In this document: positions 15,035 through 31,996 of the stretch, piece by piece
Layout of the letters: each line of letters starts with the position of its first letter
Position numbering within the stretch: position 1 is the stretch's first letter
Assembly: GCA_942493095.1 (NCBI GenBank)
Contig: OW818675.1
Span: forward strand, 780,001-812,000
Source: Candidatus Electronema halotolerans
Lineage (GTDB): Bacteria > Desulfobacterota > Desulfobulbia > Desulfobulbales > Desulfobulbaceae
Direction of reading: 5' to 3'
DNA: 32,000 nt
Notes under the pieces: generated by a model
What the model saw: only the letters and a program-made list of their open reading frames with translations
What the model was told of the DNA's origin: nothing
Database searches by the model: none
Made by a program: the position numbers and the translations under genes

Positions 15035-15070
15035 GGCAGACTCCTTTCCTGCGATCCGGGAACAAGGCAT

Positions 15071-15108
15071 AAAAAAATCCCGGATCAATTGCATAATTGA
15101 CCCAGGAT
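15071..15108 (-). terminator. Intrinsic terminator/attenuator (riboswitch expression platform)
   Basis: Minus strand: ATCCTGGGTCAATT-ATGC-AATTGATCCGGGAT followed by TTTTTTT. It lies between the aptamer and the cbiK start. Confidence 0.6.
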
Positions 15109-15169
15109 GCCCATTCTGGCCCGGATGCCTGTTCCTCCCCCTTTGCCGAGAGGGGCGGAACACCTTGTT

Positions 15170-15324
15170 CAGGCAGGTTTTCTGACTTCCGGCTCTTCCT
15201 CTGCCGCGCCTTCCCATCCCAAAACGGACAGTGACATCATGCGGCTTTGTCCCCGGTCACAGCAGCGGGCCTGTCCCGGATTCGCACCGGGTTCCCTTTT
15301 CATCCGCCCGCAGGCAGACACCTG
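15170..15324 (-). promoter_or_regulatory. Cobalamin (B12) riboswitch aptamer
   Basis: Minus strand: AAAAGGGAACCCGGTGCGAATCCGGGACAGGCCCGC (15300-15265), then ..CACTG..GGGAAGGC.. and the B12 box AGTCAGAAAACCTGCC (15187-15172). P1 is CAGGT...ACCTG. This matches the classical consensus elements. Confidence 0.85.
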
Positions 15325-15334
15325 AAACAGGCGC

Positions 15335-15363
15335 ACTTTAGCCTGCCAAGGCTGCAACGTCAA
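15335..15363 (-). promoter_or_regulatory. Candidate sigma70 promoter driving the riboswitch operon (TTGACG, 17 nt spacer, TAAAGT)
   Basis: -35 TTGACG is at 15363-15358 and -10 TAAAGT at 15340-15335, about 10 nt upstream of riboswitch P1. It starts only 18 nt after the stop of the upstream Met-rich gene. Confidence 0.55.
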
Positions 15364-15380
15364 GGGAGAAGAGAATATTA

Positions 15381-17748: not shown

Positions 17749-19176
17749 TCATCCTGCCACAGCCAAAATACCGCTGCTGACGGACGGCAGAATGCCTGCC
17801 AGCAGCATAGCCGCTGTGAGCAGGAAAAGGCTGATGGCCTGCACATTGTCCAATGCCAGCGGTTTGACCTCAGCCTGTGGCTGAATAATGTAGGCCTCTT
17901 TCACCAGCAGCAGGTAGTAATAGAGAGAAATGGTCGAATTGAGGGCGGCAAAGATCACCATCGCATAATAGCCTTCCTTGGCAGCAGCGGCAAAGAGGAA
18001 GAACTTGCCCATGAAGCCTGCCAGCGGCGGAATCCCGGCCAGCGAAAAGGCGGTCAGCATGAGAATTGCGGCCAGCCCTGGGTTGTTTCGGCCCAAGCCT
18101 TGCAGACCACTGCGCTGCTCCTCGCCATCCCGGCCAATGGCGGACATGATGAAGAAAATGGCATAGTTGGCTGCCGCATAGACAAAAAGATAAAAGATGA
18201 TGGAGGAGCGGGCATTGCCTGCGTCGCCGGTCAGGGCCATGATGATGTAGCCAGCCTGGGCGATGGACGAATAGGCCATGAAGCGGCGCAGCCGTTCCTG
18301 CTTCATCGCGCCAAGGTTGCCGACCGTCATGGTGGCGGCAGCCAGAATCAGGATGACTGACTGGAGCGAGCTGTGCAGGGCGGCCAGCGGCTCGTAGAGC
18401 AGGATGAGGAGAAAGGCGATTGCCACCGCCTTGGAAGACACGGAAATAAAGGCTGTGACCGGGCTGGGTGCGCCTTCATAGACATCCGGTGCCCAAGTAT
18501 GAAAGGGGAAGACGGTCAGCTTGAAGCCAACTGCGGCTAAAATAAAGAGCACACCCAAGCGGAGCAGCGGCTCTCCCGGATTGGCGGCGCAGGCTTTGGC
18601 CACTGCCGCAAAGGTGACGGAACCTGCTGCGCCATAGATAAAGGAGAGGCCAAAAAGCATCAGGCCGGTGGAAATCGACCCCATCATCATGTACTTGGTC
18701 GAGGCTTCAACCGACAAGTCGTCATCCTTGTAAAAGCCGCTGAGAATGTAGAGTGGAATCGCGGACAGCTCCATGCCGACAAACAGCGTCAGCAAATCAG
18801 TAGCCGAAACCACGGTGAACATGCCAAAGGTGCAGAGCAGGATGATGAACAGGAACTCGCTCTGATGCTTCATCGTTCCCCGCTGGTTGCCGCCGGGCAT
18901 GAAGTAAGGCCGGGAAAGCAGGACGGTGAAGAGCGCGGACAGGACAAAGACCTGCTTAAAGAGCAGCGATGCGCCTGTGACCTGATAGCCGCCCGGATAG
19001 AGTGCGGTCTGGTTGTACGGCAGACAGGCCAGCACAATGAAAATCACAGTTAGCCCCAGCCAAGCTATATGAAAGGGCGCGGACGAAGTCAGGTTGACCT
19101 TGCCCTTGTACAGATCATGGCCCAGAATCAGGGCGGCCAGCAGGACGAGGAGAATATCCGGGAGAAGGAGCTTCAT
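17749..19176 (-). CDS. nuoN: NADH-quinone oxidoreductase subunit N
   Basis: 475 aa polytopic antiporter-like subunit. Motifs GMELSAIPLYILSGF and FHTWAPDVYEGAPSPVTAF. Confidence 0.92.
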   Translation of the reverse strand: MKLLLPDILLVLLAALILGHDLYKGKVNLTSSAPFHIAWLGLTVIFIVLACLPYNQTALYPGGYQVTGASLLFKQVFVLSALFTVLLSRPYFMPGGNQRGTMKHQSEFLFIILLCTFGMFTVVSATDLLTLFVGMELSAIPLYILSGFYKDDDLSVEASTKYMMMGSISTGLMLFGLSFIYGAAGSVTFAAVAKACAANPGEPLLRLGVLFILAAVGFKLTVFPFHTWAPDVYEGAPSPVTAFISVSSKAVAIAFLLILLYEPLAALHSSLQSVILILAAATMTVGNLGAMKQERLRRFMAYSSIAQAGYIIMALTGDAGNARSSIIFYLFVYAAANYAIFFIMSAIGRDGEEQRSGLQGLGRNNPGLAAILMLTAFSLAGIPPLAGFMGKFFLFAAAAKEGYYAMVIFAALNSTISLYYYLLLVKEAYIIQPQAEVKPLALDNVQAISLFLLTAAMLLAGILPSVSSGILAVAG

Positions 19177-19179
19177 GGC

Positions 19180-20691
19180 TTAACGCATCAGGTTGTTGTA
19201 AATGGGATGCACTGCCTCGTTGACCAGATTGATAATCCAGCCGGGCAGCATGCCCATGCCGAAGAGACAGAAGAGCAGAATGGTCACTGGGATTTTCTCC
19301 AAGGGCGAGGCATCGGTCAAGGTCGCAAAGCGTTCAATGACCGGCCCGCCGACAAAACCGTTGACCGCCCGCAGGATATAGACTGCTGTCACTACAATGG
19401 AGAGCACCGCCAAGACTGTGCAAATCCGGTACAGCGGGGCGGAATTGGCAAAGGCTCCGACAAAGACGTTGGCCTCGGCGACAAAGCCGGACAGACCCGG
19501 CAGCCCCAGTCCTGCCAGACCGACAATCACGTAGGCTGTGGAGAGAAAGGGCATAATTTTCATCAGGCCACCCATCTCGCTCACTGTCCGGGTATGGGTT
19601 CTGCCGTAGATCATGCCGATCAGACAGAAGAAGAGGGCGGTCATCAAGCCATGCGAAATCATCTGCAAGACTCCGCCCTTAATGCCGGTAAAGGTCATGG
19701 CTGTGAAGCCGAAGAGGACCATGCCGCAGTGCGAGACCGAAGAATAGGCGGTGATGTATTTCAGGTCGGTCTGCTTGATTGCGCCCAACGCGCCGTAGAG
19801 GACATTGATGGTGACTAAAACCAAGAAAAAGGACATCCACATATTGGCCCCTTCCGGCAGCAGATACATGCCGACCCGCAGGCAGCCGTAGCCGCCCAGC
19901 TTCATCAGCACTCCGGCATGCAGCATGGAAACCGCTGTTGGCGCGGAAGCGTGGCCGTCCGGCGACCACGTATGGAAGGGATAGAGCGCGCCCAGCACAC
20001 CGAAGCCGACAAAGATGAGCGGGAAGACCCAGTGCTGGAATTCCGGCGAAAAATGATGCTGAGAAAGCTGCTGGAGGTCAAAGGTGTTGAGGCCGGATTC
20101 AAAGTAGAGGGCGAGAATGCCTGCGAGAATGAAGGCCGAGCCTGCGACCAGCATCAGGGTCAGCTTCATGGCTGAATATTCCTTCTTGCCCGTTCCCCAG
20201 AGACCGATCAGCAGGTACATGGGCAGCACCGCAATCTCGTAGAAAACAAAGAAGGTGAAGAGGTCGATGGAAACAAACACGCCATAGACCCCGGCCACCA
20301 GCACGTTGAGGAGAACAAAGAACTCCTTGGCCTGCTTCTCCACACCCCAGCTTGCCAGCACGCCGCAGAAGATGACAATGGCTGTGAGGAGCATCATCAG
20401 CACGGAGATGGCATCCACACCGATATTGTACTCAATGTGCAGCATCTGGAGCCACGGCACTGTGGCGGTGAATTGAAACTGACTGAGCCGTGCGCCGTCT
20501 GCCACAGGATGAGCTGCGGACACGCCGATGAACTGGAAAGTCAGGCTGATCACCAGCAGCAGGTTAAGCGCATTCCCGGTCAAGGAGATTATCTTGATGC
20601 GCCGGTGGTCGTCGCGGTCAACCGGCAGCAGGGCCAGCGCGGTGATGAAGGGGACTGCCCAGATCATGGTCAGCAGAAATGATCCGTTCAT
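19180..20691 (-). CDS. nuoM: NADH-quinone oxidoreductase subunit M
   Basis: 503 aa. Motifs FVFYEIAVLPMYLLIGLWG, FHTWSPDGHASAPTAVSMLHAGVLMKLGGYG and YSSVSHCGMVL. Confidence 0.92.
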   Translation of the reverse strand: MNGSFLLTMIWAVPFITALALLPVDRDDHRRIKIISLTGNALNLLLVISLTFQFIGVSAAHPVADGARLSQFQFTATVPWLQMLHIEYNIGVDAISVLMMLLTAIVIFCGVLASWGVEKQAKEFFVLLNVLVAGVYGVFVSIDLFTFFVFYEIAVLPMYLLIGLWGTGKKEYSAMKLTLMLVAGSAFILAGILALYFESGLNTFDLQQLSQHHFSPEFQHWVFPLIFVGFGVLGALYPFHTWSPDGHASAPTAVSMLHAGVLMKLGGYGCLRVGMYLLPEGANMWMSFFLVLVTINVLYGALGAIKQTDLKYITAYSSVSHCGMVLFGFTAMTFTGIKGGVLQMISHGLMTALFFCLIGMIYGRTHTRTVSEMGGLMKIMPFLSTAYVIVGLAGLGLPGLSGFVAEANVFVGAFANSAPLYRICTVLAVLSIVVTAVYILRAVNGFVGGPVIERFATLTDASPLEKIPVTILLFCLFGMGMLPGWIINLVNEAVHPIYNNLMR

Positions 20692-20764
20692 AATAGGAAT
20701 GCTCCGTTGCGGGATTTGCCGGTGGGGCTGGAGATAGTCATGCGATATCTTTTAAATTGCATTT

Positions 20765-21154
20765 TCAAGCAGTTCTGTGTCCGATCTTTTCTTGCAGCCA
20801 TGAGACCAACTCCTCATGACTTGTCCTGCCAGAAGCGAGGTCTATCATCAATTTTTCCTGTTCATCAACAGTTGCGAATATATCCATGCCGTTCTGCACA
20901 AGAAAAATTTCCATTGCGGCGTGGCTGACACGTTTGTTTCCGTCTATAAATGGGTGATTTTTGACCAATGAAAAGCAGAGAATTGCCGCCTTTTCAATTA
21001 TAGATGGATAAAGTTCTGTTTCTCCAAAAGTCTGCCTTGGCAAGGCAAGTGCTGATTCCAAACCGCCTTGATTTCTGATGCCTTGCCTGCCGCCGCTTTC
21101 TTTGAGTATGCGATCATGAAGATAGAGAATTTCGCTGAGGCTCAAATAACGCAT
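20765..21154 (-). CDS. doc: Doc (death-on-curing) family Fic-fold toxin
   Basis: 129 aa with the Doc-type motif HPFIDGNKRVSH. It shows an ATGA-type overlap with the upstream small gene. Confidence 0.88.
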   Translation of the reverse strand: MRYLSLSEILYLHDRILKESGGRQGIRNQGGLESALALPRQTFGETELYPSIIEKAAILCFSLVKNHPFIDGNKRVSHAAMEIFLVQNGMDIFATVDEQEKLMIDLASGRTSHEELVSWLQEKIGHRTA

Positions 21155-21348
21155 CAGCTTAGTCGGTTATACAGTTCTTTATTCTTGTTCAGTACATAGT
21201 TTGCTGCTGCAAGAAATTCTTCGTCGCGTGTATTCAAGAGATCAGCAATGGCTACCAGAATAAGCTGTTTTGGCAGCAGGCCAAGTTTTTTTGCTTTTTC
21301 TTGCAGCTTTGCAAATTGCGACTCGTTGAGTTCTATTGAGAGTTCCAT
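21154..21348 (-). CDS. Ribbon-helix-helix-like antitoxin partner of Doc
   Basis: 64 aa. LSIELNESQFAKLQEKAKKLGLLPKQLILVAIADLL fits a beta-alpha-alpha RHH pattern. Its position and overlap with doc support the call. Confidence 0.6.
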   Translation of the reverse strand: MELSIELNESQFAKLQEKAKKLGLLPKQLILVAIADLLNTRDEEFLAAANYVLNKNKELYNRLS

Positions 21349-21562
21349 ATAAAGCCGCTTCAGTTAAAATTGGATCAACTATAGCAGTTACGAGTTGGAC
21401 AGTTACCAAATATCCTTGCCTTGTCAAAAGTTTTATCTATTTAAATTCAACTTATTACGTGCTTATCGGCATGTTGAACTGATCGCCATTTCGCGTGTAA
21501 CCGCTATACATGAAAATTGACAAGTATTGCACGCGATACCCGTAGGATACCAGTCAGGTCTC

Positions 21563-22645
21563 TCATCTTGCCCAGTTATAACGATCCGGGTCTCTTCTGA
21601 GAAGATCATCTCGCATAGCTTTTTTCTGAGATTTTGCTAATCGCTGGTAAATGGTTCTCAGCTCAGAATCAACATAATCTTGACTATACCCTCGTTCGAT
21701 AGCTTTTTCATACCAAGAATGCCCTAAACCGTGTTGTCCCGTTTCTATATACACTGCACCAAGCAGAGTACATGGTCGGAAATCTTGAGGCGTGTACTCG
21801 TGAGCTTGCTTTCCAAGACCTAATGCTTGATCCCACTTTCCCAAATCTCGCTTAACTCCTCCATGAGTTGTGCAAATTGCTGATTTTAATTTTTTATTTT
21901 TTATATTAAGAACATCAATTATTTTTAATATCTTTTCCGCTGTTCTTGATTCATCAAATTTCCGATAGTGACTGCTTGCATTAACCGCAAACCACGGATC
22001 TTTATTTTTTTCAAATTCCTTGTGATAAAATTTTGCCTCGTTTTCATGATATTTTCTTTTCAATTCTTCAGTGAAGTAATTTTCACCATTCTCATCTTCA
22101 GATTCGTAAAGCCAAACAACCTGTTCATCGGAAAGACGTTTTCCATTATCAACATGACGCAAAAATTCCATGAGTTTTGCAAAATCATCTTGTTCGATAT
22201 AACGAGTTAATCCATACTGCTCCCTTAATTTCGACAATCTTTCTCTTGCTTTGTTTCTTGGATCATTCTTCAGTTTGGCAAAGAGAGCCTTTTCGTTTGA
22301 TTTTTGTTTAGCAAACAATGCCGCTTGTTTAGCAACTAACGCATCTCGTTCCAATTTTTGCCTAACTTTTTCTATTGCAGCTACTTCTGCCGCCGCTTTA
22401 ACTCGTGCAGATTTTTCTATTTCTGCAATTTTCACAAAATCAACATAGGATGCTTCGCCTCTTGCATAGCTCAATAACGCAAAGAAACCTTTTTCTTGCA
22501 AGAATTTCTGCGTTATATCAAAAAGTTTACCTTTTGACTCCAATTCTTGGAGTATATTAAAAAAACGACCTCCTGGAATAGATGCGCTTCTTATATCTTC
22601 TATTTTGTATTTGATCGCTAAATCGCTGTATCTAACAAACGTCAT
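21563..22645 (-). CDS. Hypothetical protein: N-terminal domain, Lys/Ala/Glu-rich coiled coil, C-terminal TPR-like repeats
   Basis: AT-rich ORF. The start was moved to MTFVRYSD (M22 of the track ORF) to remove overlap with the upstream gene. TPR-like segments are DLGKWDQALGLGKQAHEYTPQDFRPCTLLGAVYIETGQHGLGHSWYEKAIERG. No family was recognised. Confidence 0.55.
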   Translation of the reverse strand: MTFVRYSDLAIKYKIEDIRSASIPGGRFFNILQELESKGKLFDITQKFLQEKGFFALLSYARGEASYVDFVKIAEIEKSARVKAAAEVAAIEKVRQKLERDALVAKQAALFAKQKSNEKALFAKLKNDPRNKARERLSKLREQYGLTRYIEQDDFAKLMEFLRHVDNGKRLSDEQVVWLYESEDENGENYFTEELKRKYHENEAKFYHKEFEKNKDPWFAVNASSHYRKFDESRTAEKILKIIDVLNIKNKKLKSAICTTHGGVKRDLGKWDQALGLGKQAHEYTPQDFRPCTLLGAVYIETGQHGLGHSWYEKAIERGYSQDYVDSELRTIYQRLAKSQKKAMRDDLLRRDPDRYNWAR

Positions 22646-22682
22646 CTTTATGATAAACCAAATTGTAATTGATATGAATCCA

Positions 22683-23096
22683 CTATTCCAGCTTTGCCAC
22701 AACCTCAAACAGACAGTTCAAGACATTGAACATTTTCTGCAAATTATCAGCAGCAGAGATGGAAACTGGATCAACGGTGAAAAGATTCTGCTCCAGCTTG
22801 CCAAATTCCCACGTTTTCTCTGTCGTGACCACAGCGTAGCAAGTCGTTGCACCTGACAACGAAGAAGCCACCATTTCTGCCAAAGCCTGCGCCCATCCTT
22901 GAGCAAAATCGATTCGTTCGCATATTGTTGTTTCATTCACAAAACTCAGGCTGTCGCTGATATTTTCGGCAATCATAACGAACAGACATTCTGACACATC
23001 CATTTCCTTTTGCGCGATGAAACTTGTCCGTTCACCAACCGCAATATCAAATGTTCTGGCAACCTCCTCAATGGTTTTGAATGTGCCATAAGCCAT
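22683..23096 (-). CDS. Hypothetical 137-aa protein; resembles the N- and C-terminal flanks of a PD-(D/E)XK (HsdR_N-like) protein without the catalytic core
   Basis: The C-terminal pattern QALAEMVASSLSGATTCYAVVTTEKTWEFGKLE parallels QLLAELISALELN..GAYIIGGSWHFVILEK of the 27782-28549 product. No D..ExK core is visible. Confidence 0.45.
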   Translation of the reverse strand: MAYGTFKTIEEVARTFDIAVGERTSFIAQKEMDVSECLFVMIAENISDSLSFVNETTICERIDFAQGWAQALAEMVASSLSGATTCYAVVTTEKTWEFGKLEQNLFTVDPVSISAADNLQKMFNVLNCLFEVVAKLE

Positions 23097-23108
23097 GTGA
23101 ATGCACCG

Positions 23109-23564
23109 TCAATCCTGCATTTCTTTGCTGCACGGCAGTTTGCCCTCATGCGAATAACAGGAAGTCTGTCCCTTCTCATCCACAATCCAGACCTCAACCG
23201 CTCCCTTTGCCAGATAGAGCTGCACTTTTTCTTCAATCTCGCCCGCTGAATTGGACGGCGAAGTGATTTCGACGCAGATTTCAGGAGCTTTTCTGTACGG
23301 TGTGCTGTATCCGTATTGCTCAATAAAAGCATCTGAAGCCCATGCGACATCAGCAACTTTCACGCCATCGCTGGTCTGAATAGAGCATTCCATGATAATC
23401 TTGCCGTTCCCTTTAGCTATATCAATCCGGCGGCCCACTTCATATTGCAGGCGGCCATGATTGTTGCTCGCCGGACTCATGAGGATTTTTCCCCATTTGT
23501 TCAGCTCGATTTTGAACGGCAGATTTTGCAGCAAAGGATTGCTGATGACGCTGGCCCATTCCAT
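23109..23564 (-). CDS. Uma2 (DUF820) family PD-(D/E)XK putative endonuclease
   Basis: 151 aa. VADVAWAS ... APEICVEITSPSNS ... KVQLYLAKGAVEVWIVD matches the Uma2 pattern. Its ATG lies only 6 nt after the nuoL stop. Confidence 0.78.
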   Translation of the reverse strand: MEWASVISNPLLQNLPFKIELNKWGKILMSPASNNHGRLQYEVGRRIDIAKGNGKIIMECSIQTSDGVKVADVAWASDAFIEQYGYSTPYRKAPEICVEITSPSNSAGEIEEKVQLYLAKGAVEVWIVDEKGQTSCYSHEGKLPCSKEMQD

Positions 23565-23570
23565 CGTTGA

Positions 23571-25493
23571 TTATCGTCCCATGAACAGCAAAGCAATCAA
23601 ACCTACCACGGTCGCGCCAAGATAGAGATGCAGCTCACCGTTCTGCACCAAACGCACGCCTTTGCCGCCAAGATGCAGGAGCCAGCCGCAGAGATTCATC
23701 ACACCATCAACCACATTGCGGTCAAACCATTTGATCGACGCGGCAATGCCGTTGAAAATGATCTTGTGGGTGATGAAGAGATACAGTTCGTCAATGTAGA
23801 ACTTGTTCTGCACCACCGTATGCAAGGGGCCAAATGCCTTTTGCAAGGCCGCAGCTTTTTCTGTCTTTCCCTCGCCGTAGAGCAGCCACGCGCCGCCAAT
23901 GCCAATTGCTGCGACCAGCGTTGCCAGCCAAGGCAGCCAGCCCGGATGGGCAAAATGGCTGACCTCGCTCAGATGCGGCGGCAGGACTTGCTCAACAAAG
24001 GTATGCTCCAGCAGGCCCGCCAAAATCGTCGGCACAGTCAGGGCAATGATCGGCCACGTCATCCACGGGTCTTCATGAACATGATGGAGCTGCGAGCGGG
24101 CCTCGCCGTGGAAGATCAGGAAAAAGAAGCGGAACATATAAAAGGCGGTCAAGCCGCCGGTGATCAGGCCGACCAAAAAAGTGATCCAATGACCAGACTG
24201 CAACGAGGCCAGCAGAATCATGTCCTTGGACCAAAAGCCGCTGAAAGGAAATACGCCACCAATGGCAAGACAGGCAGCTAAAAGCGACCAGTAAGTGCGC
24301 GGCATCTGCCGTTTCAGGCCGCCCATTTGGAGAATATCGTTGCTGTGGACAACGTGAATCACCACGCCTGCGCCAAGGAATAACATGCACTTGAAAAAGG
24401 CATGCGTGAAGACATGATACATGGAAGCGGAAAAGCCGAGCAGATTGACCTCCGCGCCATGATGCCCACCCTCAGCGCAGACCTTGGCCGCACCGAGGGA
24501 GAAAATCATATAACCGAGCTGGGACAAGGTGGAAAAGGCGAGGATGCGCTTGATGTCCATCTGGGTGATGGCGATGACCGCAGCAAACAGGGCCGTGAAC
24601 GCGCCGATGCACTGGATGACAAAGAGAGTGCTTTCTGCGGCGGCAAAGAGCGGGAACATCCGGGCGGTCAAATACACACCGGCCACCACCATTGTCGCCG
24701 AATGAATGATCGAGGAAACCGGAGTCGGTCCTTCCATTGCGTCCGGCAGCCAGACATGGAGCGGGAACATGGCCGACTTGCCCCAGCCGCCACAGAAAAT
24801 CAGCAGGGTGGCAAGGGTGAGCACGCCAGCCTTGTTGAGCAGCAGGGCAGTTTCCGGGCTGTTAAGCGTTTGGAAGCTGAAGCTCTGGCTGTAAAAACTG
24901 ACGATGAGAATGCCGAGCAGGAAAAAGGCATCAGCAAAGCGGGTGACGATGAAGGCTTTTTTCGAGGCGGCCACGGCAGAGGGTTTTTCATACCAGAAGC
25001 CGATCAGCGCATAGGACGACACACCGACTAATTCCCAGAAAACAAACATCTGGAGGATATTGCCGGAAGTGACCAAGCCCAGCATTGAGAAGGAAAACAG
25101 GGCCAGCAGGGCGAAGAAGCGGTTGAAGGAACGGTCGCCCTTCATGTAGCCAACTGAATAAATGTTCACCAGCAGTGAGATCACCGTGACCACAACCAGC
25201 ATCATCACCGAAATCGGGTCTAAATACATGCCCAAGTTGGCGGTCAGACCGGGGGCAAAATTGAGCCACGCGGCATCGTAGGCCAGCAGGGTGCGTTCCG
25301 GCAGATGCGGCAGGCGGCTCAAATAGGCGAGCGTGGTCAGCAGGGCATAGCCCAACGACAGGCTCGACATGGTGATGGCGAACTTGGCGACAAAGCGGTT
25401 GTCCGAGTTCAGATGCCCCAGCCCGATGATGGCAAAGCTGAAGAGCGGAAAGAGCAGAATCAGGTAGCTGTGGAAAAAGATGAAATCAGCCAT
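23571..25493 (-). CDS. nuoL: NADH-quinone oxidoreductase subunit L
   Basis: Motifs WELVGVSSYALIGFW, LHVWLPDAMEGPTPVSSIIHSATMVVAGVY and STLSQLGYM. The start was moved to MADFIFF (M56 of the track ORF), giving an 8-nt overlap with nuoK. Confidence 0.92.
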   Translation of the reverse strand: MADFIFFHSYLILLFPLFSFAIIGLGHLNSDNRFVAKFAITMSSLSLGYALLTTLAYLSRLPHLPERTLLAYDAAWLNFAPGLTANLGMYLDPISVMMLVVVTVISLLVNIYSVGYMKGDRSFNRFFALLALFSFSMLGLVTSGNILQMFVFWELVGVSSYALIGFWYEKPSAVAASKKAFIVTRFADAFFLLGILIVSFYSQSFSFQTLNSPETALLLNKAGVLTLATLLIFCGGWGKSAMFPLHVWLPDAMEGPTPVSSIIHSATMVVAGVYLTARMFPLFAAAESTLFVIQCIGAFTALFAAVIAITQMDIKRILAFSTLSQLGYMIFSLGAAKVCAEGGHHGAEVNLLGFSASMYHVFTHAFFKCMLFLGAGVVIHVVHSNDILQMGGLKRQMPRTYWSLLAACLAIGGVFPFSGFWSKDMILLASLQSGHWITFLVGLITGGLTAFYMFRFFFLIFHGEARSQLHHVHEDPWMTWPIIALTVPTILAGLLEHTFVEQVLPPHLSEVSHFAHPGWLPWLATLVAAIGIGGAWLLYGEGKTEKAAALQKAFGPLHTVVQNKFYIDELYLFITHKIIFNGIAASIKWFDRNVVDGVMNLCGWLLHLGGKGVRLVQNGELHLYLGATVVGLIALLFMGR

Positions 25494-25791
25494 GAAGTTC
25501 CTCCAGCCGGTACACATCCAGCCGTTTTTTGCGGCGGTACATGGAGATGATGATGGCCAAGGCCACGGCGATCTCGCAAGCCGAGACAGCCATGACAAAG
25601 ACCGGGAAGACCGCTCCGGCAACCGGATCCGCAGCCCGGAAATGGGCAAAGGCGGCAAAGTTGATGTTGGCTCCGTTGAGAATGATCTCCACCGAGAGCA
25701 GGATGCCGAGCAGGTTGCGTCTTGTCAACATGCCGAAGATGCCGATGGCGCAGAGAATCAGCGACAGGGCGATGCAATGGGAAAGGGTCAT
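25486..25791 (-). CDS. nuoK: NADH-quinone oxidoreductase subunit K
   Basis: 101 aa with 3 TM helices. Motifs LLSVEIILNGANINFAAF and ACEIAVALAIII. Confidence 0.92.
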   Translation of the reverse strand: MTLSHCIALSLILCAIGIFGMLTRRNLLGILLSVEIILNGANINFAAFAHFRAADPVAGAVFPVFVMAVSACEIAVALAIIISMYRRKKRLDVYRLEELHG

Positions 25792-26315
25792 TGTTTATCC
25801 TCCTTTTTCGGTTCCCGCCGGGACAGCACCACGGCCCCGATCAGGGAGGCCAGCAGCAGGAGCGAAATCACCTCAAAGGGGACTATGAAGCCGTTGTTGG
25901 TTGAGAGCAGACGAATGCCGATCTGGTCAATGGTCACTGGCGCGGCCCGATGCGTTTCTGTCAGCAGCGGCGAGGGATTGCGCTTGAAGAAGAGAAACAG
26001 GGCGGAGAGCAGGCCGACGACGATCAGCACCTTGCTGGCTTGCCGACCGAGCGTGACCCGGCTCAGGCTGTCATCCACGCCAAGGTCGTTGGTCAGGAGG
26101 ATGATGATCAGCATGAAGATGACAATGCCGCCGACATACAGGGCGATCTGCGCCAGAGCCAAGAACTCCATTTGCAGCATGATGTACAGGGCGGCAGTGG
26201 CAAAGAAAGAGCCGACCAGCGCAATGGCACCATGCAGGAGATTTGGCAGACTCACTGCCAGCAGCGACAGAATCACCATTGCTGCTGCCAGAATATAAAA
26301 GAGGAAATCGCTCAT
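25788..26315 (-). CDS. nuoJ: NADH-quinone oxidoreductase subunit J
   Basis: The start was moved to MSDFLFYILAAAMV, which forms a TGATG junction with the nuoI stop. It has the typical NuoJ TM pattern and its operon position fits. Confidence 0.88.
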   Translation of the reverse strand: MSDFLFYILAAAMVILSLLAVSLPNLLHGAIALVGSFFATAALYIMLQMEFLALAQIALYVGGIVIFMLIIILLTNDLGVDDSLSRVTLGRQASKVLIVVGLLSALFLFFKRNPSPLLTETHRAAPVTIDQIGIRLLSTNNGFIVPFEVISLLLLASLIGAVVLSRREPKKEDKQ

Positions 26316-26809
26316 CAGCAGGCTCCCGGAGTTGTGTTTTCCGTTTTGTTGAGCACCCAAGTCAGTTCGTTGCGGTCATACACTGCCAGCTCAAAATCTT
26401 TTGCCAGCTCAATCGCGCCAAAGGGACAGGCTTCAACGCAGAGGCCGCAGAAGGTGCATTGCGAGAGTCGGTAGATGTATTTTCCCAGCACCTTTTTTCC
26501 GGCAAGGTCTTTGGTCGGCAGGACGGAAATAGTGCCGTTGGGGCAAGATTTCTCGCAGATGCCGCAGGCCGTGCAGGCGTTATTGCCGTTTTCATCATGC
26601 GGCATGTGCAGATGGCCCCGAAAGCGGTCAAACATTTGCAGCGTGTCCCGGTTTTCCGGGTACTGCTGGGTGATGACCGTCTTGGGATTGGCAAAATACT
26701 TGATGGTGATGTCCATCCCCTGCATCAGGGTGTACAAGCCAGTGATCGTCTTATGCACGTAACGGCTGACGAACTCCAGCACGTTTTCTTTCTGGGCGAT
26801 TTCTTTCAT
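26315..26809 (-). CDS. nuoI: NADH-quinone oxidoreductase subunit I (2x[4Fe-4S])
   Basis: Two ferredoxin-type motifs: CTACGICEKSCP and CTFCGLCVEACP. Confidence 0.92.
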   Translation of the reverse strand: MKEIAQKENVLEFVSRYVHKTITGLYTLMQGMDITIKYFANPKTVITQQYPENRDTLQMFDRFRGHLHMPHDENGNNACTACGICEKSCPNGTISVLPTKDLAGKKVLGKYIYRLSQCTFCGLCVEACPFGAIELAKDFELAVYDRNELTWVLNKTENTTPGAC

Positions 26810-27627
26810 AGATACTTCCCTGAACGTTTCTGGTCAAGCAGCGGCAATTCTTTTTGTGATAATCCAGTTAATTTCATGACAAGCTCCACAGCAAGTCCTT
26901 CCTGAAGCATGGCCGCAGCAATCTCTTGTTGACGATTGCGTCTTCCCGTTTCCTGTCCCTCGATAAATTTTTTCTGCTGCAATTCTTCCAGATGAAATTC
27001 ATCAATCATCCACGCCCGCTCTTCCGGCGAAATTTGATCTCGGCGAATGGCCTCGAAGAGTTTCTGGATAGCAGACTGCCTGTATTGCGTTTCATCAACC
27101 TCTTCATCTAAGGTATCATTGATGGCCCGCAGCCAGTCCCGGCACGGTTCTGGGGTGTCCTCGTTGACATATTTTGGGCAAAGATAAATTACCTTGTGAT
27201 CAATCTCATGCAGCGGCCTGCCTTGCAAATCGTGCGGATCGAAATTAATCAGAGAAATATCCCGCTGATGTCGGTCGCCAGAAGTCAGCACCACCACCGT
27301 GAAAACCTTCAGATTGGGATGATAATTCTGCGCCTTGACAATTTGCTCCAGCAAGGCGGCGCAGTGATAATAGAGAAAACGGTCATAATGATCTGAGGTG
27401 CGGGCGTGTTGAATATCAACAATCACTCGATGTTGTAAATCTTCAGCAAAAAGATCAAATCGAGGTTTAATATAACCAACAGGAGGATCAAATTCCTTTT
27501 CCGTCTCCACATGATCGATTTCCAACGGGAGGCCGATGACATCCTTGGCAAAGGCAGTGAAAATTTCCGGGTCGCAGAATGCCTTTTTAAAAACAACTCC
27601 GTATTTCAACGAGGCAACTTGTTTCAT
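26806..27627 (-). CDS. Rpn/PDDEXK_2-family PD-(D/E)XK nuclease (recombination-promoting nuclease/putative transposase family)
   Basis: YGVVFKKAFCDPEIFTAFAKDVIGLPLEIDHVE ... RFDLFAEDLQHRVIVDIQH fits the family pattern. The start was moved to MKQVASL, which follows an AGGA RBS. Its stop forms an ATGA overlap with the nuoI start. Confidence 0.68.
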   Translation of the reverse strand: MKQVASLKYGVVFKKAFCDPEIFTAFAKDVIGLPLEIDHVETEKEFDPPVGYIKPRFDLFAEDLQHRVIVDIQHARTSDHYDRFLYYHCAALLEQIVKAQNYHPNLKVFTVVVLTSGDRHQRDISLINFDPHDLQGRPLHEIDHKVIYLCPKYVNEDTPEPCRDWLRAINDTLDEEVDETQYRQSAIQKLFEAIRRDQISPEERAWMIDEFHLEELQQKKFIEGQETGRRNRQQEIAAAMLQEGLAVELVMKLTGLSQKELPLLDQKRSGKYL

Positions 27628-27781
27628 GATCGTCCTATTACGCTGTTTGTCTGATAATTGCAGAGATGATGCCGGACAATTTTCCACATATTTAACATAA
27701 GTCATGTTTGCTTGAACAACAACAAATTGCTGTATTTTTTGCTCTCTTTTTTATGACAATCAAGTTGCTTTTATCAATTAT

Positions 27782-28549
27782 TTATACCTTACTATGAGCG
27801 TTGCTATCTGCTGTGATCATAGAAATGATTTCTTGTTTCACATAGACAAGGTGTTGATAGATGCGTTTCAAGTCGTCAAGTTTCGTTGCATCGAAATTTT
27901 GTGAAATAAAATATTGATATGTTTCACTTGCGAGTTTTTCAAGAATCACAAAATGCCAACTCCCTCCGATAATGTATGCTCCTTTGATCGTGTTCCACGT
28001 ATTGAGTTCCAGCGCGCTGATCAATTCAGCTAAAAGTTGAGGACGAGGATTGCCATATTCTTCGCTCCGTTTAAATTCTTGAATGAAAAAATATGGGCGC
28101 TTGCTCTCGACTAAGCCTTCAGCCACCACGAAGTCAACAGTCCCATTGAAGACAAAACGACTTGTGGCGTATGTCATGGACACTTCATAAAAATCTCGAA
28201 TGCGTCGTTCAAATGATGCAAAACGAACTCGTTTGAGCAGCGGGCCGATAAAGTTGATTTTCAAGTCCTCTTCACCATAGCTTTCCATCAAAACGGCATT
28301 CTCGTCAAGCAGCTCGGCCAAAAACGCTTCCGTTTCACGATCAATGTCAACTGATCTATCAAACCATTCATCAAACCGATGCTGATCAATATTCCGTTCA
28401 ATCTCAAATAGCGAGGTTAAGTCGCGATCCCGAATTTTGCTGTACTGATAGGTCGGAATCGGAGGTGTCTTTTTTCCTTCAAGGAAACTGACTTTCCTCT
28501 TGAGTTCTTCGATTTCCTGCAAGAGTTGCGTTTCAAACTCGCTCCTCAT
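27782..28549 (-). CDS. Hypothetical PD-(D/E)XK-fold protein (HsdR_N-like domain) with an N-terminal coiled coil
   Basis: EEDLKINFIGPLLKRV ... GTVDFVVAEG ... PYFFIQEFKRS ... QLLAELISAL ... GGSWHFVILEK shows a D...ExK arrangement. It is AT-rich. Confidence 0.5.
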   Translation of the reverse strand: MRSEFETQLLQEIEELKRKVSFLEGKKTPPIPTYQYSKIRDRDLTSLFEIERNIDQHRFDEWFDRSVDIDRETEAFLAELLDENAVLMESYGEEDLKINFIGPLLKRVRFASFERRIRDFYEVSMTYATSRFVFNGTVDFVVAEGLVESKRPYFFIQEFKRSEEYGNPRPQLLAELISALELNTWNTIKGAYIIGGSWHFVILEKLASETYQYFISQNFDATKLDDLKRIYQHLVYVKQEIISMITADSNAHSKV

Positions 28550-28602
28550 GCCATTATCTCTAGTGTAAGTTCATGCACGACATGATTTCATTGCAAAAAA
28601 GA

Positions 28603-29673
28603 TCACCCCGCCCAGCCTTGCGCGACAAACAGGCCAGACAGCATCAACAGGAGCAGATTGGCAGGCAGCATAATCCGCCATTCCAAATACATGAGCTGAT
28701 CGACCCGGATTCTGGGGAAGGTCCAGCGGAACCACATGTAAATAAAGACGATAAAAAAGGCCTTGGCAAAGAACCAGATGAAGCCGGGAATGAAGTTCAA
28801 CATAGGAAACGGTGCAAAAAAGCCACCAAGGAAAAAAGTGGTGATCAGGCAGGCTGAGACAAACATGTTGACGAATTCGCCCAAGAAAAACATGGCAAAG
28901 CCCATGCCTGAATATTCAGTGGCAAAACCGCCAGTCAGCTCAGATTCTGCCTCAGCAATGTCAAAGGGAGTCCGGTTCAGCTCCGCTGTGGAGGCGATCA
29001 GATACATGATAAAGGCGAAAATGCCGAGAAAAGGCAGCTTGAAAATCCACCAGTCAAAAATGGTGCCCTGCTGGGACAAAACAATGCCGCGCAGGGAGGC
29101 CGTGCCGGAGACCATGACAATCAGGAGCATGAGCAGGGCGATGGAAATCTCAAAGGAAACCATCTGCGCGCCGGAGCGCATCGCACCCAGGAGCGAATAT
29201 TTATTGTTCGAGGCCCAGCCTGCCAAGAGAATGCCGAGAACGCTGAGGCCGGACACACCCAGCACATAGAGCACTCCGCCTGCCGGGTCGGCCACTTGCA
29301 GGTGATGATCAAACGGAATGACCGCCAGCACAAGAAAGGCGGCACTGACCGGCAGGAGCGGGGCGAGGAAGAAAATAAAGGTGTCCGCGCCATCCGGCTT
29401 GAGAATCTCTTTGAAAATTGTTTTGATGCCGTCAGCCACGGCCTGAAGCAGCCCGTGCGGCCCAACCCGCATTGGCCCAAGACGGACTTGAAAATGGGCG
29501 GAAACCTTGCGCTCCAAGTAAATCAGCACTGCGCCCAAAGAGCCAACCAGAGCCATCAGGCTGAGGAGGGCCAGTAGTCCGTTGACCAGCACGGCAAGGT
29601 GGGGCGGAAAAAGACTGCGGACAAGATCGCCTATCGGGTTGTTGACCGGGTATGATTCTGGGTAAGGCAGCAT
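28603..29673 (-). CDS. nuoH: NADH-quinone oxidoreductase subunit H
   Basis: Motifs YLERKVSAHFQVRLGPMRVGPHGLLQ, TPFDIAEAESELTGGFATEYSG and RWTFPRIRVDQLM. Confidence 0.92.
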   Translation of the reverse strand: MLPYPESYPVNNPIGDLVRSLFPPHLAVLVNGLLALLSLMALVGSLGAVLIYLERKVSAHFQVRLGPMRVGPHGLLQAVADGIKTIFKEILKPDGADTFIFFLAPLLPVSAAFLVLAVIPFDHHLQVADPAGGVLYVLGVSGLSVLGILLAGWASNNKYSLLGAMRSGAQMVSFEISIALLMLLIVMVSGTASLRGIVLSQQGTIFDWWIFKLPFLGIFAFIMYLIASTAELNRTPFDIAEAESELTGGFATEYSGMGFAMFFLGEFVNMFVSACLITTFFLGGFFAPFPMLNFIPGFIWFFAKAFFIVFIYMWFRWTFPRIRVDQLMYLEWRIMLPANLLLLMLSGLFVAQGWAG

Positions 29674-29689
29674 GGCATTTCACCTGTGT

Positions 29690-30856
29690 TTAACGGTCGA
29701 TATCCGGGATGACTAAGTCGAGGGTTGACATGATGGTGATTAAATCCGCCACCTTGTGTCCGGCAGCCAGCTCGTTCAGCACGCTCAGGTTGGAGAAATT
29801 CGGCGAGCGGTATTTAAGCCGGTAGGGCTTGGCATCGCCTTCAGAGACAATATAAACACCGAGCAGGCCGCGTGGAGTCTCAACTTGGTTGTAATAACTG
29901 CCTTTGGGCAGCTTGTAATTCGGCTTGGGCTGGCTGCGGTGCGGCCCGCCGGGAAAGCGCGCCACTGCCTGTTCTAAAATGCGCAGCGATTGCTCCATTT
30001 CCTCCATGCGGACTTGGCAGCGGTCGTAGCTGTCGCCTGTGCTGCCGAGCGGAATGTCGAAATCAAACTGCTCGTAGATCGAATAGGGATCGTTGCGGCG
30101 GATATCGTAGTTGACCCCGGAACCGCGCAGCACTGGCCCGGTGCAGCCATAAGAAAGGGCTTTCTCTGGCGAGAGAATACCTATTCCCTTGGTGCGCTCC
30201 AAGAAGATGATGTTTTTGTTGAGCAGGGTTTGGTATTCGTCCAACTGCTTGCGCAAAAGAGGAATCAGGCTTTTGATGCGAGGAATGAAGCCATCCGGCA
30301 CATCTGCCGAGGCACCGCCGGGCCGGAAATAGTTCACAGTCAGGCGTGCGCCGCAGAGTTCTTCAAAAATATCGTTGATCAGCTCGCGCTCGCGGAAGCC
30401 ATAAAAATAGGTGGTGAAGGCACCCATGTCCATGCCGAGAACACCCCACCAAAGCAGGTGCGACTGGAGCCGTTGCAACTCGCTGACCATGACCCGGATG
30501 TATTCGCCGCGCTCCGGCACACCGATGTTCAATGCTTTTTCAACGGTCATGCAGAGGCAGAGATTGTTGAAAAAGGCGGACAGATAGTCGAGCCGGTCAG
30601 ACAGGTGGATGTTCTGGATGTATGTCTGGCTTTCCGCCATCTTCTCGATGCCACGATGGATGTAGCCAAGATGCGGCACCACTTCCACGACGGTCTCGCC
30701 GTTGAGCCGGACCACCACCCGGAGTACGCCGTGGGTGCTGGGATGCTGCGGCCCGATGTTGACAAAGAAGTCTTCCGCTTCGCTGTCCTCGGATAATGGC
30801 AGCTTGAAGCCTTCCGGTAACGGACTGGCAGATATGCCTACTGTTTCTGTTTGCAT
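29690..30856 (-). CDS. nuoD: NADH-quinone oxidoreductase subunit D
   Basis: Motifs NIGPQHPSTHGVLR, HLGYIHRGIEK and DLVIPDIDR at the C-terminus. Confidence 0.92.
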   Translation of the reverse strand: MQTETVGISASPLPEGFKLPLSEDSEAEDFFVNIGPQHPSTHGVLRVVVRLNGETVVEVVPHLGYIHRGIEKMAESQTYIQNIHLSDRLDYLSAFFNNLCLCMTVEKALNIGVPERGEYIRVMVSELQRLQSHLLWWGVLGMDMGAFTTYFYGFRERELINDIFEELCGARLTVNYFRPGGASADVPDGFIPRIKSLIPLLRKQLDEYQTLLNKNIIFLERTKGIGILSPEKALSYGCTGPVLRGSGVNYDIRRNDPYSIYEQFDFDIPLGSTGDSYDRCQVRMEEMEQSLRILEQAVARFPGGPHRSQPKPNYKLPKGSYYNQVETPRGLLGVYIVSEGDAKPYRLKYRSPNFSNLSVLNELAAGHKVADLITIMSTLDLVIPDIDR

Positions 30857-30893
30857 CTCATTCTCTCAGTTCAGGCGGCAACAGCAATGAATT

Positions 30894-31286
30894 TCATATC
30901 TCGGTCAAATAGCTGCTCATGATTTCGTCCAGCACTTCCGGCAAGGCAGGAGTTACAGCAAAAATGATTCCCGTGACTGTATGTTTATGTTCAGAAAAAC
31001 CAAGGGCAGGTTTATGGGCAGCATTGTTATAGCGAAATCGTAGCATGGCATCAGCATTCTGATAATGAAATGAATACATTTTTCTGTCAAGGCCATGCCG
31101 GAGATCAAGATACTCTTTGAAAAAAAGCGTTGAACCGTCGGTAAAAGTCACAATTCCTTTCAGCAGACCGAGCTGTTCTGTTCGCATATCTGCGGTCAGC
31201 TCAGAATGAACAAGCAGTTCACTGCGGCTGAACTCCGCAAGAACATTCTGAATATCAAGGACATATTCACTGAACAGCATACTCAA
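30894..31286 (-). CDS. DUF6516/TumE-like family protein (putative TA toxin component)
   Basis: GIVTFTDGSTLFFKEYLD ... YSFHYQNADAMLRFRYNNAAHKPALGFSEHKH resembles the DUF6516 pattern (..DGS.L...E....YsYH.....RYDNAPHH....PHHKH) as I recall it. This needs an HMM check. Confidence 0.5.
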   Translation of the reverse strand: MSMLFSEYVLDIQNVLAEFSRSELLVHSELTADMRTEQLGLLKGIVTFTDGSTLFFKEYLDLRHGLDRKMYSFHYQNADAMLRFRYNNAAHKPALGFSEHKHTVTGIIFAVTPALPEVLDEIMSSYLTEI

Positions 31287-31560
31287 TCTGTTGCAGCAGA
31301 TGGAGTTCTTCCAACACCGCTTGACGGATATTGATTTCTCCCATCCAGCTTACATAATCATCATCTCCGCCTGCCAAATCTTCCGCTGAACAGTCGTTCT
31401 GAAATTGTTCTGAAGACATATTGTATTTTTCTTCAAATTTCTGAATTTCTTTTTCTGTTTTCCGCAGGCCGATTTCGATGCGCCTCATTTTGGCGGCAAT
31501 GGCGGATTGAATAACAGGAAGTGCATTCTGCTGATCAGAAGCAATATGAAGCCGTATCAT
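31267..31560 (-). CDS. Small hypothetical protein, possible partner of the DUF6516-like gene
   Basis: 97 aa, helical and acidic. It overlaps the downstream gene by 20 nt. No family was recognised. Confidence 0.4.
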   Translation of the reverse strand: MIRLHIASDQQNALPVIQSAIAAKMRRIEIGLRKTEKEIQKFEEKYNMSSEQFQNDCSAEDLAGGDDDYVSWMGEINIRQAVLEELHLLQQIEYAVQ

Positions 31561-31579: not shown

Positions 31580-31996
31580 TTAGCTGTCCAGCACCTTGCC
31601 TCGCAACTGCTTGATTCTGCCCTGCCGTGTCTTCCTTTCCAAGCGTTTTTTCTGAGCTGCCTGTGTTATTCTGGTCGGCCTGCGCACTTTCTGCACAACC
31701 ATCGCCCTTTTGATCAAATCCCGCAGCCGCTCCAGCGCATCCTGCCGGTTCTGCTCCTGAGTCCGATATTGCTGGGCCTTGATGATTACCACGCCGTCCT
31801 TGCTCACCCGCGCATCGTTGAGGCAAAGCAAACGCTGCTTGCAGTGATCGGGCAGCGATGAGGCGTTGATGTCAAAACGCAGATGAATCGCTGAGGCAAC
31901 TTTGTTGACGTTCTGCCCGCCCGCTCCCTGCGCCCGGATGGCCAGCAGCTCAATCTCATGATGAGGAATGGAAATATTACGGGAAATGTGAAGCAT
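31580..31996 (-). CDS. arfB: Alternative ribosome-rescue factor ArfB (YaeJ), peptidyl-tRNA hydrolase
   Basis: 138 aa with the GGQ motif (AQGAGGQNVNKVASAIHLRFD) and a basic C-terminal tail (RRPTRITQAAQKKRLERKTRQGRIKQLRGK). Confidence 0.88.
   Translation of the reverse strand: MLHISRNISIPHHEIELLAIRAQGAGGQNVNKVASAIHLRFDINASSLPDHCKQRLLCLNDARVSKDGVVIIKAQQYRTQEQNRQDALERLRDLIKRAMVVQKVRRPTRITQAAQKKRLERKTRQGRIKQLRGKVLDS

Follow-up and report, generated by a model that had tools for sequence, protein, structure and literature searches.

Several genes for respiratory complex I (nuo) in the cable bacterium Candidatus Electronema halotolerans are separated by genes of unrelated families, which raises the question of whether the latter are recent arrivals, parts of the respiratory system or long-term residents. 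The locus lies in a 32,000-nt stretch of the Ca. Electronema halotolerans genome (the window), and all window coordinates given here are those of this whole stretch. Comparison with 78 related loci suggests that the nuo operon probably contains a long-lived hotspot for accessory genes (cargo), which would be tolerated only in read-through orientation. Genes were called from the listing of open reading frames (ORFs) and from profile searches with Pfam, NCBIfam and PADLOC. These bore out the minus-strand gene order and the annotations given in a preliminary description of the sequence.

Occupied nuo junctions in cable bacteria

A NuoL scan with one genome per species gave 79 loci, onto which the window proteins were mapped. 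Junctions were counted in 17 loci of cable bacteria (Electronema and Electrothrix) and in 50 non-cable loci. The nuoL|nuoM gap measured 648-4576 bp in all 17 cable-bacteria loci, whereas it exceeded 600 bp in none of the 50 others, a contrast far beyond chance. In the latter, the gap was 8-194 nt (20-194 nt in the non-cable Desulfobulbales), and an apparent exception, L057, was a split alignment. The nuoH|nuoI junction was filled (325-2634 bp) in 7/17 cable-bacteria loci; it was at most 394 nt elsewhere and 47-131 nt in the non-cable Desulfobulbales. nuoA, nuoBC and nuoD were contiguous in 8/8 relatives. In 7/7 Electronema loci, arfB, with or without cargo, was present between nuoBC and nuoD (L001, L003, L004, L006, L012 and L013 among them). 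Occupied junctions were also observed in the complete chromosomes CP178758.1 and OW818652.1. No insert was detected in the overlapping nuoI-nuoJ-nuoK-nuoL block of any locus, and the nuoD|nuoH and nuoM|nuoN spacers were empty in all loci, except for one in L005, where the gap includes a stretch of N.

Thus, the synteny comparison proposed in the preliminary description did find empty junctions in relatives. The word "colonised" used there is likewise supported: the inserts are not ancestral subunits, as the junctions of relatives are compact, the cargo differs by species and its families are known elsewhere. The same description placed ten genes at three junctions. The ten genes are present, but the first cassette sits together with arfB in the nuoBC|nuoD interval, which makes a fourth junction.

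In the window, nuoD to nuoN are present, are co-oriented and are under purifying selection (ratio of nonsynonymous to synonymous substitution rates, dN/dS, 0.04-0.21). In the Electronema relatives, nuoA and the fused nuoBC are located upstream of arfB, that is, past the end of the window. The nuo cluster of cable bacteria is of the 11-subunit type (nuoA, nuoBC, D, H, I, J, K, L, M and N), and nuoE, nuoF and nuoG were seen in none of the nuo loci examined. The complex I genes of cable bacteria are therefore under strong purifying selection despite the fragmented operon, and annotation of cable-bacteria genomes should not presume contiguous nuo genes. Past nuoN, synteny is not kept even among Electronema species, which points to a generally fluid genome.

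As a separate observation, the nuoL-nuoM spacers of the closest non-cable relatives (L016, L021 and L035) are enlarged (164-194 nt). Those of L016 and L021 have a 25-nt element in common (ATATGGAGTAC..CTGAACAGTTAC), and that of L035 contains a long inverted repeat (GTAAAATTTCTA...TAGAAATTTTAC). Both may represent small mobile elements without coding capacity.

Gene families and composition of the cargo

The inserts of the 17 loci include five PD-(D/E)XK nuclease families, namely Uma2, two PD-DExK subfamilies of about 200 aa, a 255-aa PD-DExK protein and PDDEXK_2. Predicted type II toxin-antitoxin inserts are RHH-Doc, TumA-TumE, DUF2442-PIN and HicA, and PIN/DUF3368 is also present; MNT-HEPN, a further pair of this type, was found in a sister assembly of the window species (see below). 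The others are a BsoBI restriction-modification system, a ThsB-like TIR protein, a CyanoTRADD-associated membrane protein, an EEP-like protein, the TPR family and, in four Electrothrix loci, an alkaline phosphatase. No single gene occurs in all loci: Uma2 is present in 9/17, the TPR gene in five and Doc in three. Among the insert ORFs of at least 100 aa, 54/58 are co-oriented with nuo, and the ten inserts of the window all share the nuo orientation, as had been described. At least two of the four opposite-strand ORFs (those in L025 and L010) are antisense to Uma2 sequence. The others, judged by eye, are of low complexity or overlap the conserved nuoM leader described below, and look non-coding.

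The inserts had been reported as more AT-rich than the nuo genes, and this was confirmed. The GC content at third codon positions (GC3) is 0.67-0.82 in all 12 native genes of the window (0.68-0.76 in the nuo cluster genes) and about 0.28-0.55 in all 12 accessory genes, which are the ten inserts and a restriction-modification pair at 9834-11898. The distribution is cleanly bimodal. The TPR gene has the lowest value in the window (0.27), and arfB is of native composition (0.68). Cargo families of the Uma2 and TPR types were more AT-rich than their neighbors in each context examined. In five species (the window, L001, L004, L012 and L013), the GC3 of the TPR gene is 0.26-0.34, against 0.75-0.85 in their nuo genes. 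Since this cargo is common to five species and is AT-rich in spite of a divergence similar to that of the flanking nuo genes, AT-richness does not mean recent arrival here, and the common shortcut that equates the two is corrected. This point goes beyond the preliminary description, as do the lineage-wide pattern and the decayed nuclease gene described below.

nuoBC|nuoD: The genes of this and the following junctions lie on the minus strand of the window. arfB, which encodes an alternative ribosome-rescue factor, is located at 31580-31996 (NCBIfam NF006718, 2e-55; Pfam RF-1). A 97-aa ORF (31267-31560) begins 19 nt beyond the arfB stop and overlaps by 20 nt the gene of a predicted toxin of the TumE (DUF6516) family (30894-31286). 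The toxin matched Pfam PF20126 (1.2e-14; 54.5 bits against a cut-off of 23.4) and PADLOC PDC-M44B (3e-10). Since its score with NCBIfam NF045777 (37.1) is below the cut-off (90), it is a distant member of the family and not an equivalog. The 97-aa ORF matched TumA weakly (NF045776, E 3.3e-3, 17.6 bits against a cut-off of 100; PDC-M44A, E 1.9e-3) and is regarded as a putative TumA-like antitoxin. Its dN/dS against L001, in which the pair with TumE is also present, is 0.05. TumE-TumA is an experimentally validated toxin-antitoxin system, in which the partner lies upstream of the toxin gene and overlaps it (PMC10584680). The 97-aa ORF has the arrangement of that report. The pair is located between arfB and nuoD in the window, and a related pair between nuoBC and arfB in L001; immediately upstream of arfB, the sister assembly of the window species has the MNT-HEPN pair. 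The end of the TumE gene is 37 nt from nuoD (29690-30856; Pfam Complex1_49kDa, 5.5e-94), and nuoH follows (28603-29673; Pfam NADHdh, 3.4e-109). It may be added that the neighbors of arfB are predicted toxins against mRNA or translation (TumE, HEPN and, further along, Doc).

nuoH|nuoI: The first gene encodes a 255-aa protein with the PD-DExK nuclease fold (27782-28549; 6.4e-7 with PADLOC PDLC01472 PD_DExK, a model of CRISPR-associated nucleases), and its catalytic motif, VDFVV...IQEFK, is intact. An orthologue with 93% amino acid identity (dN/dS 0.07) occupies the same junction in L006. The two genes are 91% identical in nucleotide sequence, against 78-82% in nuoH (synonymous divergence, dS, 0.46). 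A recent transfer of this gene between the window species and L006 was considered; the evidence is suggestive but weakened, as a GC3 shift in the L006 nuo genes (0.5 against 0.7) inflates the divergence of the flanks. The second gene encodes a PDDEXK_2 / Rpn-like nuclease (26806-27705; Pfam PF12784, 2.5e-9, 37.6 bits against a cut-off of 27.4), and PF27070 HTH_Rpn_C is recorded for an identical gene. Since the TIGR01784 score is below the cut-off (35.2 against 52.1 bits), this protein is only distantly related to the Rpn proteins of E. coli. An orthologue was found in L013 and a 3′ remnant in L009.

nuoL|nuoM: Downstream of the nuoI-nuoJ-nuoK-nuoL block, the genes of which overlap (23571-26809; Pfam), the first insert is a Uma2-family PD-(D/E)XK nuclease gene (23109-23564; Pfam PF05685, 2.1e-15, 57.0 bits against a cut-off of 27), and the catalytic D...E-x-x-S/K residues can be read in the protein (VADVAW...VEITSPS). 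The next gene (22683-23096; 137 aa) was recognized, by alignment with nine homologues, as a remnant of a PD-DExK nuclease of about 200 aa. An in-frame deletion of about 62 aa removed the PD...EAK core, and the frame is open. The remnant is 68% identical to the 199-aa form of Electrothrix over the retained residues, and PADLOC PD_DExK gave 1e-18 (C-terminal half only) for the remnant and 2e-44 for a full-length homologue. The third insert encodes a coiled-coil/TPR-like protein of 360-381 aa, depending on the choice of start (21563-22645 or 21563-22708). Its AlphaFold2 model (pLDDT 92.6) is all-alpha, and the structural matches in PDB, which were only to generic TPR repeats, indicated no function. 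The gene is present at nuoL-nuoM in five Electronema species (dN/dS 0.15-0.21). Its family has 390 members and is also known from solo genes, from an integrative conjugative element and from eight contigs of viral or prophage origin.

A 214-nt spacer (21349-21562) precedes the last two inserts, a 64-aa putative antitoxin gene (21154-21348), RHH-like by eye, and the gene of a predicted Doc toxin (20765-21154), which overlap by 1 nt. The 64-aa ORF had no match in Pfam, NCBIfam or PADLOC. Doc matched Pfam Fic (5.4e-22) and TIGR01550 (1.5e-18; 67.1 bits against a cut-off of 38.65), and its motif HPFIDGNKR is intact. The RHH-Doc pair is also the last cargo before nuoM in L001 and L003 (dN/dS 0.10-0.18). 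Both toxin-antitoxin pairs of the window resemble TumE-TumA and Phd/RHH-Doc in that a small upstream partner overlaps the toxin gene in a two-gene unit; the Doc partner in the window is RHH-like, not Phd. A leader mini-ORF (MTISSPTGKSRNGAFLL; 20688-20741) follows, the TGA of which overlaps the ATG of nuoM. nuoM and nuoN (17749-20691; Pfam Proton_antipo_M) are separated by 3 nt.

In nine cable-bacteria loci, Uma2 is present at nuoL-nuoM with 81-87% amino acid identity, at distances from 6 nt to about 1.7 kb from the nuoL stop, and L010 carries what looks like a degraded copy. The subfamily comprises more than 120 clusters at 69% identity or more. The copies of L080, L081 and L083, which are from unrelated genomes with Gammaproteobacteria-like and very GC-rich surroundings, share 74-82% identity with that of the window. 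They are always solo ORFs in a spacer beside housekeeping genes, and the sites recorded for Uma2 are, besides nuoL/nuoM, DcuC/UvrD, RecQ/aconitase and cytochrome c/trehalose phosphatase. Around the Uma2 unit, neither a target-site duplication nor a common flank was found, and homology stops at the ends of the ORF. With its identity of 74-82%, Uma2 is far more conserved than NuoL would be over such phylogenetic distances.

Residence, turnover and expression of the cargo

The dN/dS of the cargo is 0.05-0.21 and that of the nuo genes 0.04-0.21 (nuoD, 0.04-0.10; Uma2, 0.08-0.12). Judged by these ratios, the cargo is functional and under purifying selection. In pairs without a compositional shift, dS is 0.70-0.97 for the TPR gene, 0.79-0.88 for RHH and Doc, 0.79-1.08 for Uma2 and 0.62-0.81 for nuoL and nuoM. 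The synonymous divergence of the cargo, which is similar to or greater than that of the flanks, is consistent with a long residence in which the cargo descended vertically and was lost differentially. In the window and in Electrothrix alike, a PD-DExK gene of type B directly follows the Uma2 gene. Cargo was in place at nuoL|nuoM before the split of Electronema and Electrothrix, and this Uma2 and PD-DExK pair was probably the ancestral occupant.

The junctions also retain traces of turnover. In L009 (Electrothrix sp. YB6), about 20 C-terminal codons of PDDEXK_2 are located between nuoH and nuoI (about 8600-8846), behind a BsoBI methylase-endonuclease system. This arrangement is evidence for in-place replacement of old cargo by new. 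In the filled nuoH|nuoI sites, the native spacer of 48-65 nt is gone. Further traces are the deleted core of the 137-aa gene, the seemingly degraded Uma2 of L010 and the location of TumA-TumE, which differs in its side of arfB between the window and L001. Intact genes, internally deleted genes and 3′ remnants are thus visible at one site, and the case suits the study of turnover.

We propose the following course of events. Small accessory genes, each little more than an ORF, have settled only in the spacers between non-overlapping nuo genes, namely nuoBC|nuoD, nuoH|nuoI and nuoL|nuoM. They would most likely have arrived by illegitimate or short-homology insertion, and then spread by recombination in the conserved nuo flanks. 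No att or attC site, target duplication or border repeat was found at the nuo cargo of the window, no integrase there or in the inserts of the 17 loci, and no tRNA, tmRNA or known RNA element in the nuo region. A survival filter may act on the insertions, so that only those that are co-oriented, terminator-free and tightly packed last. Since its first occupation, nuoL|nuoM has gained cargo and lost it differentially, and residents have been replaced in place or have decayed. The cargo is a mixture of selfish and defense genes, which would persist because each is maintained individually and leaves the operon undisrupted.

The geometry of the junctions is consistent with such a filter. The Uma2 ATG lies 6 nt past the nuoL stop, without a Shine-Dalgarno sequence, and the PDDEXK_2 stop shares an ATGA with the nuoI ATG. 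Both details had been given exactly in the preliminary description. The remaining gaps are 12, -26, -1, 19, -20, 37, 53, 73 and 76 nt, and the 214-nt spacer is the only large one and the only one with room for a promoter of a cassette's own. The statement that several inserts have no space for their own promoters is thus correct. No terminator-like site was detected in any cargo spacer, and the cargo spacers, including that of 214 nt, fold no better than shuffled sequence (z about 0). Since the surviving inserts are co-oriented, terminator-free and tightly packed, RNA polymerase and ribosomes would still reach the downstream nuo genes. It is plausible from this layout that cargo and nuo genes are read through as one mRNA. 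In the supplementary files of PMC11976967, a search for cargo proteomics gave no matches for Uma2 or NuoL/M terms.

Translation of the next nuo gene may be secured in two ways, by a cargo stop on its ATGA (PDDEXK_2 to nuoI) or by the leader ORF of nuoM. At three filled nuoH|nuoI sites, the last cargo ORF ends on the nuoI ATGA. Upstream of nuoM, a segment of about 55 nt is conserved in 17/17 cable-bacteria loci (the window, L001-L013, L025, L026 and L061) and in none of the relatives. It reads as an ORF of 12-20 codons; its peptide sequence varies, and its TGA shares bases with the ATG of nuoM. From the homologous leader ATG to nuoM, five independent indels occur, each a multiple of three in length, for which the chance is about 0.4% if the frame is irrelevant. 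The leader has no conserved RNA structure (-1.96 kcal/mol, no covariation) and contains a duplicate of the nuoM ribosome-binding-site region (GCAACGG...GCAACGGAG). We infer that the unstructured leader couples or re-initiates nuoM translation, whatever lies upstream. With its cargo stops over start codons and this lineage-specific leader, the locus suits the study of operon adaptation. A separate observation concerns L012 (E. aureum GS), in which the ORF of a HicA toxin (15230-15664) continues into the nuoM leader frame, so that the resulting fusion ORF of 144 aa has its stop in the ATGA of nuoM.

Several observations weigh against a long-lived hotspot that depends on read-through. Co-transcription and translational coupling are deduced from spacing alone. 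Between 12.2 and 32 kb, every gene is encoded on the minus strand, and co-orientation may therefore partly reflect a regional strand bias. Promoter-like hexamers number 23, against 12.3 ± 3.3 in shuffled sequences, and are enriched in the AT-rich cargo. The two best promoter-like sites are located inside TumE, facing nuoD (TTGACA-17-CATTAT, 31090-31062, 205 nt upstream of nuoD), and inside Doc, facing nuoM (about 300 nt upstream). In Electrothrix, nuoD to nuoN are apart from nuoA-nuoBC, and MOSC, LysR and ilvC genes are located upstream of nuoD; the operon of this genus is truly split. The low GC3 of the TPR gene, despite a dS of about 0.7-1.0, is not easily reconciled with vertical descent over a long time under the mutation pressure of the host; possible causes are a weaker GC-biased conversion of accessory DNA and repeated delivery of the gene from a pool of AT-rich sequences. 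The relatives are mostly metagenome-assembled genomes. Furthermore, the density of AT-rich segments is 21.5% inside nuo and 27% in the flanks, which gives no support to an enrichment of cargo inside nuo. The idea of a safe harbor in the preliminary description is not supported in the sense of enrichment, and "hotspot" here means persistent occupancy, since the cargo density in nuo is no higher than in the flanks. In the nuo loci of relatives, the density is 1.6%. What sets cable bacteria apart is that they have lost an exclusion which is nearly complete in relatives.

Alternatively, nuo would be broken into separate transcription units (nuoA-BC, arfB, nuoDH, nuoIJKL and nuoMN), with the cargo in ordinary inter-operon space and promoters in or next to the cargo driving the downstream nuo blocks. 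We consider this somewhat unlikely, although it is the strongest alternative. The promoter-like sites in TumE and Doc mean that the blocks could be separate units, and the conserved leader ahead of nuoM would suit a unit that begins there. In Electrothrix L007, L008, L010, L025 and L026, nuoA and nuoBC are absent from the 1-6.5 kb upstream of nuoD, and a conserved CTTGACA-17-TTCATT is located about 70-110 nt upstream of nuoD. However, the 6-nt gap between nuoL and Uma2 and the ATGA of PDDEXK_2 and nuoI leave no room for a terminator and a promoter at these two borders and speak against full insulation, terminator-like hairpins are missing from all spacers, and by eye the nuoM leader has no promoter-like hexamers. 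Strict co-orientation would also be needless for separate units. Separate units and read-through can both be partly true. A different extension of the proposal, which we hold to be rather doubtful, is that the leader mini-ORF acts as a translational insulator and makes nuoL|nuoM a neutral landing site. This site would have been refilled throughout the history of the lineage, mainly by solo PD-(D/E)XK ORFs that spread without integrases in a homing-like or recombination-promoting manner.

Homing proper is an attractive but improbable explanation. Here, solo PD-(D/E)XK genes would invade like free-standing homing endonucleases, cutting cargo-free spacers and being copied in during repair. The free-standing homing endonuclease genes seg and mob of T4-like phages are likewise AT-rich, ORF-only genes, co-oriented and located in short spacers of conserved essential genes; they belong to other nuclease families and to phages instead of a chromosome. 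Five PD-(D/E)XK families gather at the nuo junctions, the unit of homology is the ORF alone, and the nuclease genes are more AT-rich than their neighbors in every context examined. Uma2 copies, moreover, are at least 74% identical across unrelated genomes and always lie in a spacer by housekeeping genes. On the other hand, the copies that are 74-82% identical occupy four unrelated sites with no common flanking sequence, so that the single target of a homing endonuclease is lacking, and at nuoL|nuoM the distance of Uma2 from the nuoL stop is variable. Much of the cargo is also non-nuclease, and the dS values fit vertical co-divergence.

Co-option of the inserts for complex I is very improbable, whether they would serve as accessory subunits, stabilize the operon as addiction modules or regulate subunit stoichiometry at the RNA or DNA level. 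Purifying selection on the cargo is as strong as on nuo, and nuoL|nuoM is never empty in cable bacteria. However, this explanation, part of which had been offered as an alternative in the preliminary description, is contradicted by the variable and decaying content of the cargo. No cargo gene is common to all loci, the content is wholly different in some species (alkaline phosphatase or BsoBI restriction-modification, for example), and copies decay, as with the 137-aa gene and the L009 remnant. In addition, the same families occur far from nuo elsewhere, and their composition is foreign.

Two break points are seen in short-read contigs of the window species (the ends of L085/L100, L086 and L088), one within the 214-nt spacer that precedes the RHH-Doc pair and the other 33 nt upstream of arfB. 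These breaks hint at presence/absence variation in the population or at repeats at the cassette borders. An assembly or binning artefact that joined nuo fragments to AT-rich DNA has a negligible probability: although many relatives are metagenome-assembled and short-read contigs break at these two borders, the identical arrangement recurs in four independent assemblies from different samples and in a 3.2-Mb Ca. Electronema halotolerans contig, which encodes a protein 100% identical to the TPR protein of the window, junctions are occupied in the two complete chromosomes, and the junctions are in frame and tightly packed.

Comparable systems and other features of the window

Chromosomal hotspots for accessory and defense genes between core genes are a concept of pan-genome research. 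The nuo cargo resembles them in that the same junction is always occupied, by small, variable, AT-rich defense, toxin-antitoxin and restriction-modification genes with rapid turnover. In contrast, the nuo junctions are inside one operon, between subunits of one enzyme, and the cargo is strictly co-oriented, with spacing as tight as 6-nt gaps and ATGA overlaps. The nuo site also differs in having no integrase, tRNA gene or prophage, and in the conserved leader ORF before the downstream gene. Not only islands between operons but also a respiratory operon of many subunits can harbor selfish and defense genes over very long periods, apparently on the condition that these arrive in read-through orientation without terminators.

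Integron cassette arrays (chromosomal superintegrons) consist of small, co-oriented, mostly promoterless ORFs behind an upstream promoter, are variable among strains and are rich in toxin-antitoxin genes. The nuo cargo is similar in its small, co-oriented, mostly promoterless, variable and toxin-antitoxin-rich ORFs. An integron was nevertheless rejected: no IntI was found in or near the arrays, no attC-like inverted repeats at the borders and no repeat families, and the spacers are unstructured (z about 0).

In the nqo/nuo clusters of Paracoccus denitrificans and Rhodobacter capsulatus, unidentified reading frames (URFs) are scattered among the structural genes. Like the nuo cargo, these are co-oriented, non-complex-I ORFs between nuo genes. 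To our knowledge, they are few, their function is obscure, and they have not been described as toxin-antitoxin or nuclease genes or as variable among species. In contrast, the cargo of cable bacteria belongs to identifiable selfish and defense families that differ by species. Our literature search found no paper on interrupted nuo clusters in cable bacteria and nothing citable on the nuo URFs.

Another precedent is found in cyanobacteria, in which the hox/hup hydrogenase clusters are interspersed with xisH/xisI, Uma2 and hypothetical ORFs (PMC2674450). By reverse transcription PCR, xisH-xisI-ORF15-ORF16-hoxW were shown to be co-transcribed (PMC2674450). As in the nuo loci of cable bacteria, an energy-metabolism cluster of a filamentous bacterium contains unrelated small ORFs including Uma2 (PMC2674450). 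The Uma2 ORF of Lyngbya is located downstream of hoxW and not between structural subunit genes, and that study included no lineage-wide or turnover comparison (PMC2674450). Selfish or defense cargo inside an operon is an unusual but not unprecedented lifestyle.

Outside the nuo cluster, the plus-strand restriction-modification pair at 9834-11898 is AT-rich (GC 0.40-0.46; GC3 0.49-0.50) and stands, co-oriented, at the end of a GDP-mannose dehydratase operon. Its members are an N6_N4 methylase, the C-terminal domain of which is SNase-like, and an MjaI-like endonuclease, and its style of insertion is as in nuo. The segment at 12500-14000, which holds an ABC-transporter ATPase gene and the next gene, has a GC content of 0.64-0.68 (GC3 0.78-0.82), against a window average of about 0.55. 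Only two RNA features were detected in the window, both outside the nuo region. One is a cobalamin riboswitch on the minus strand (15155-15340; Rfam RF00174, 135.5 bits), upstream of the gene at 14039-15217, and the other is a tRNA gene. Since the listed start of this gene overlaps the riboswitch, the true start is further downstream. The tRNA gene, tRNA-Arg(CCT) on the plus strand (7695-7771), lies between two sugar-nucleotide operons, with no mobile element attached.

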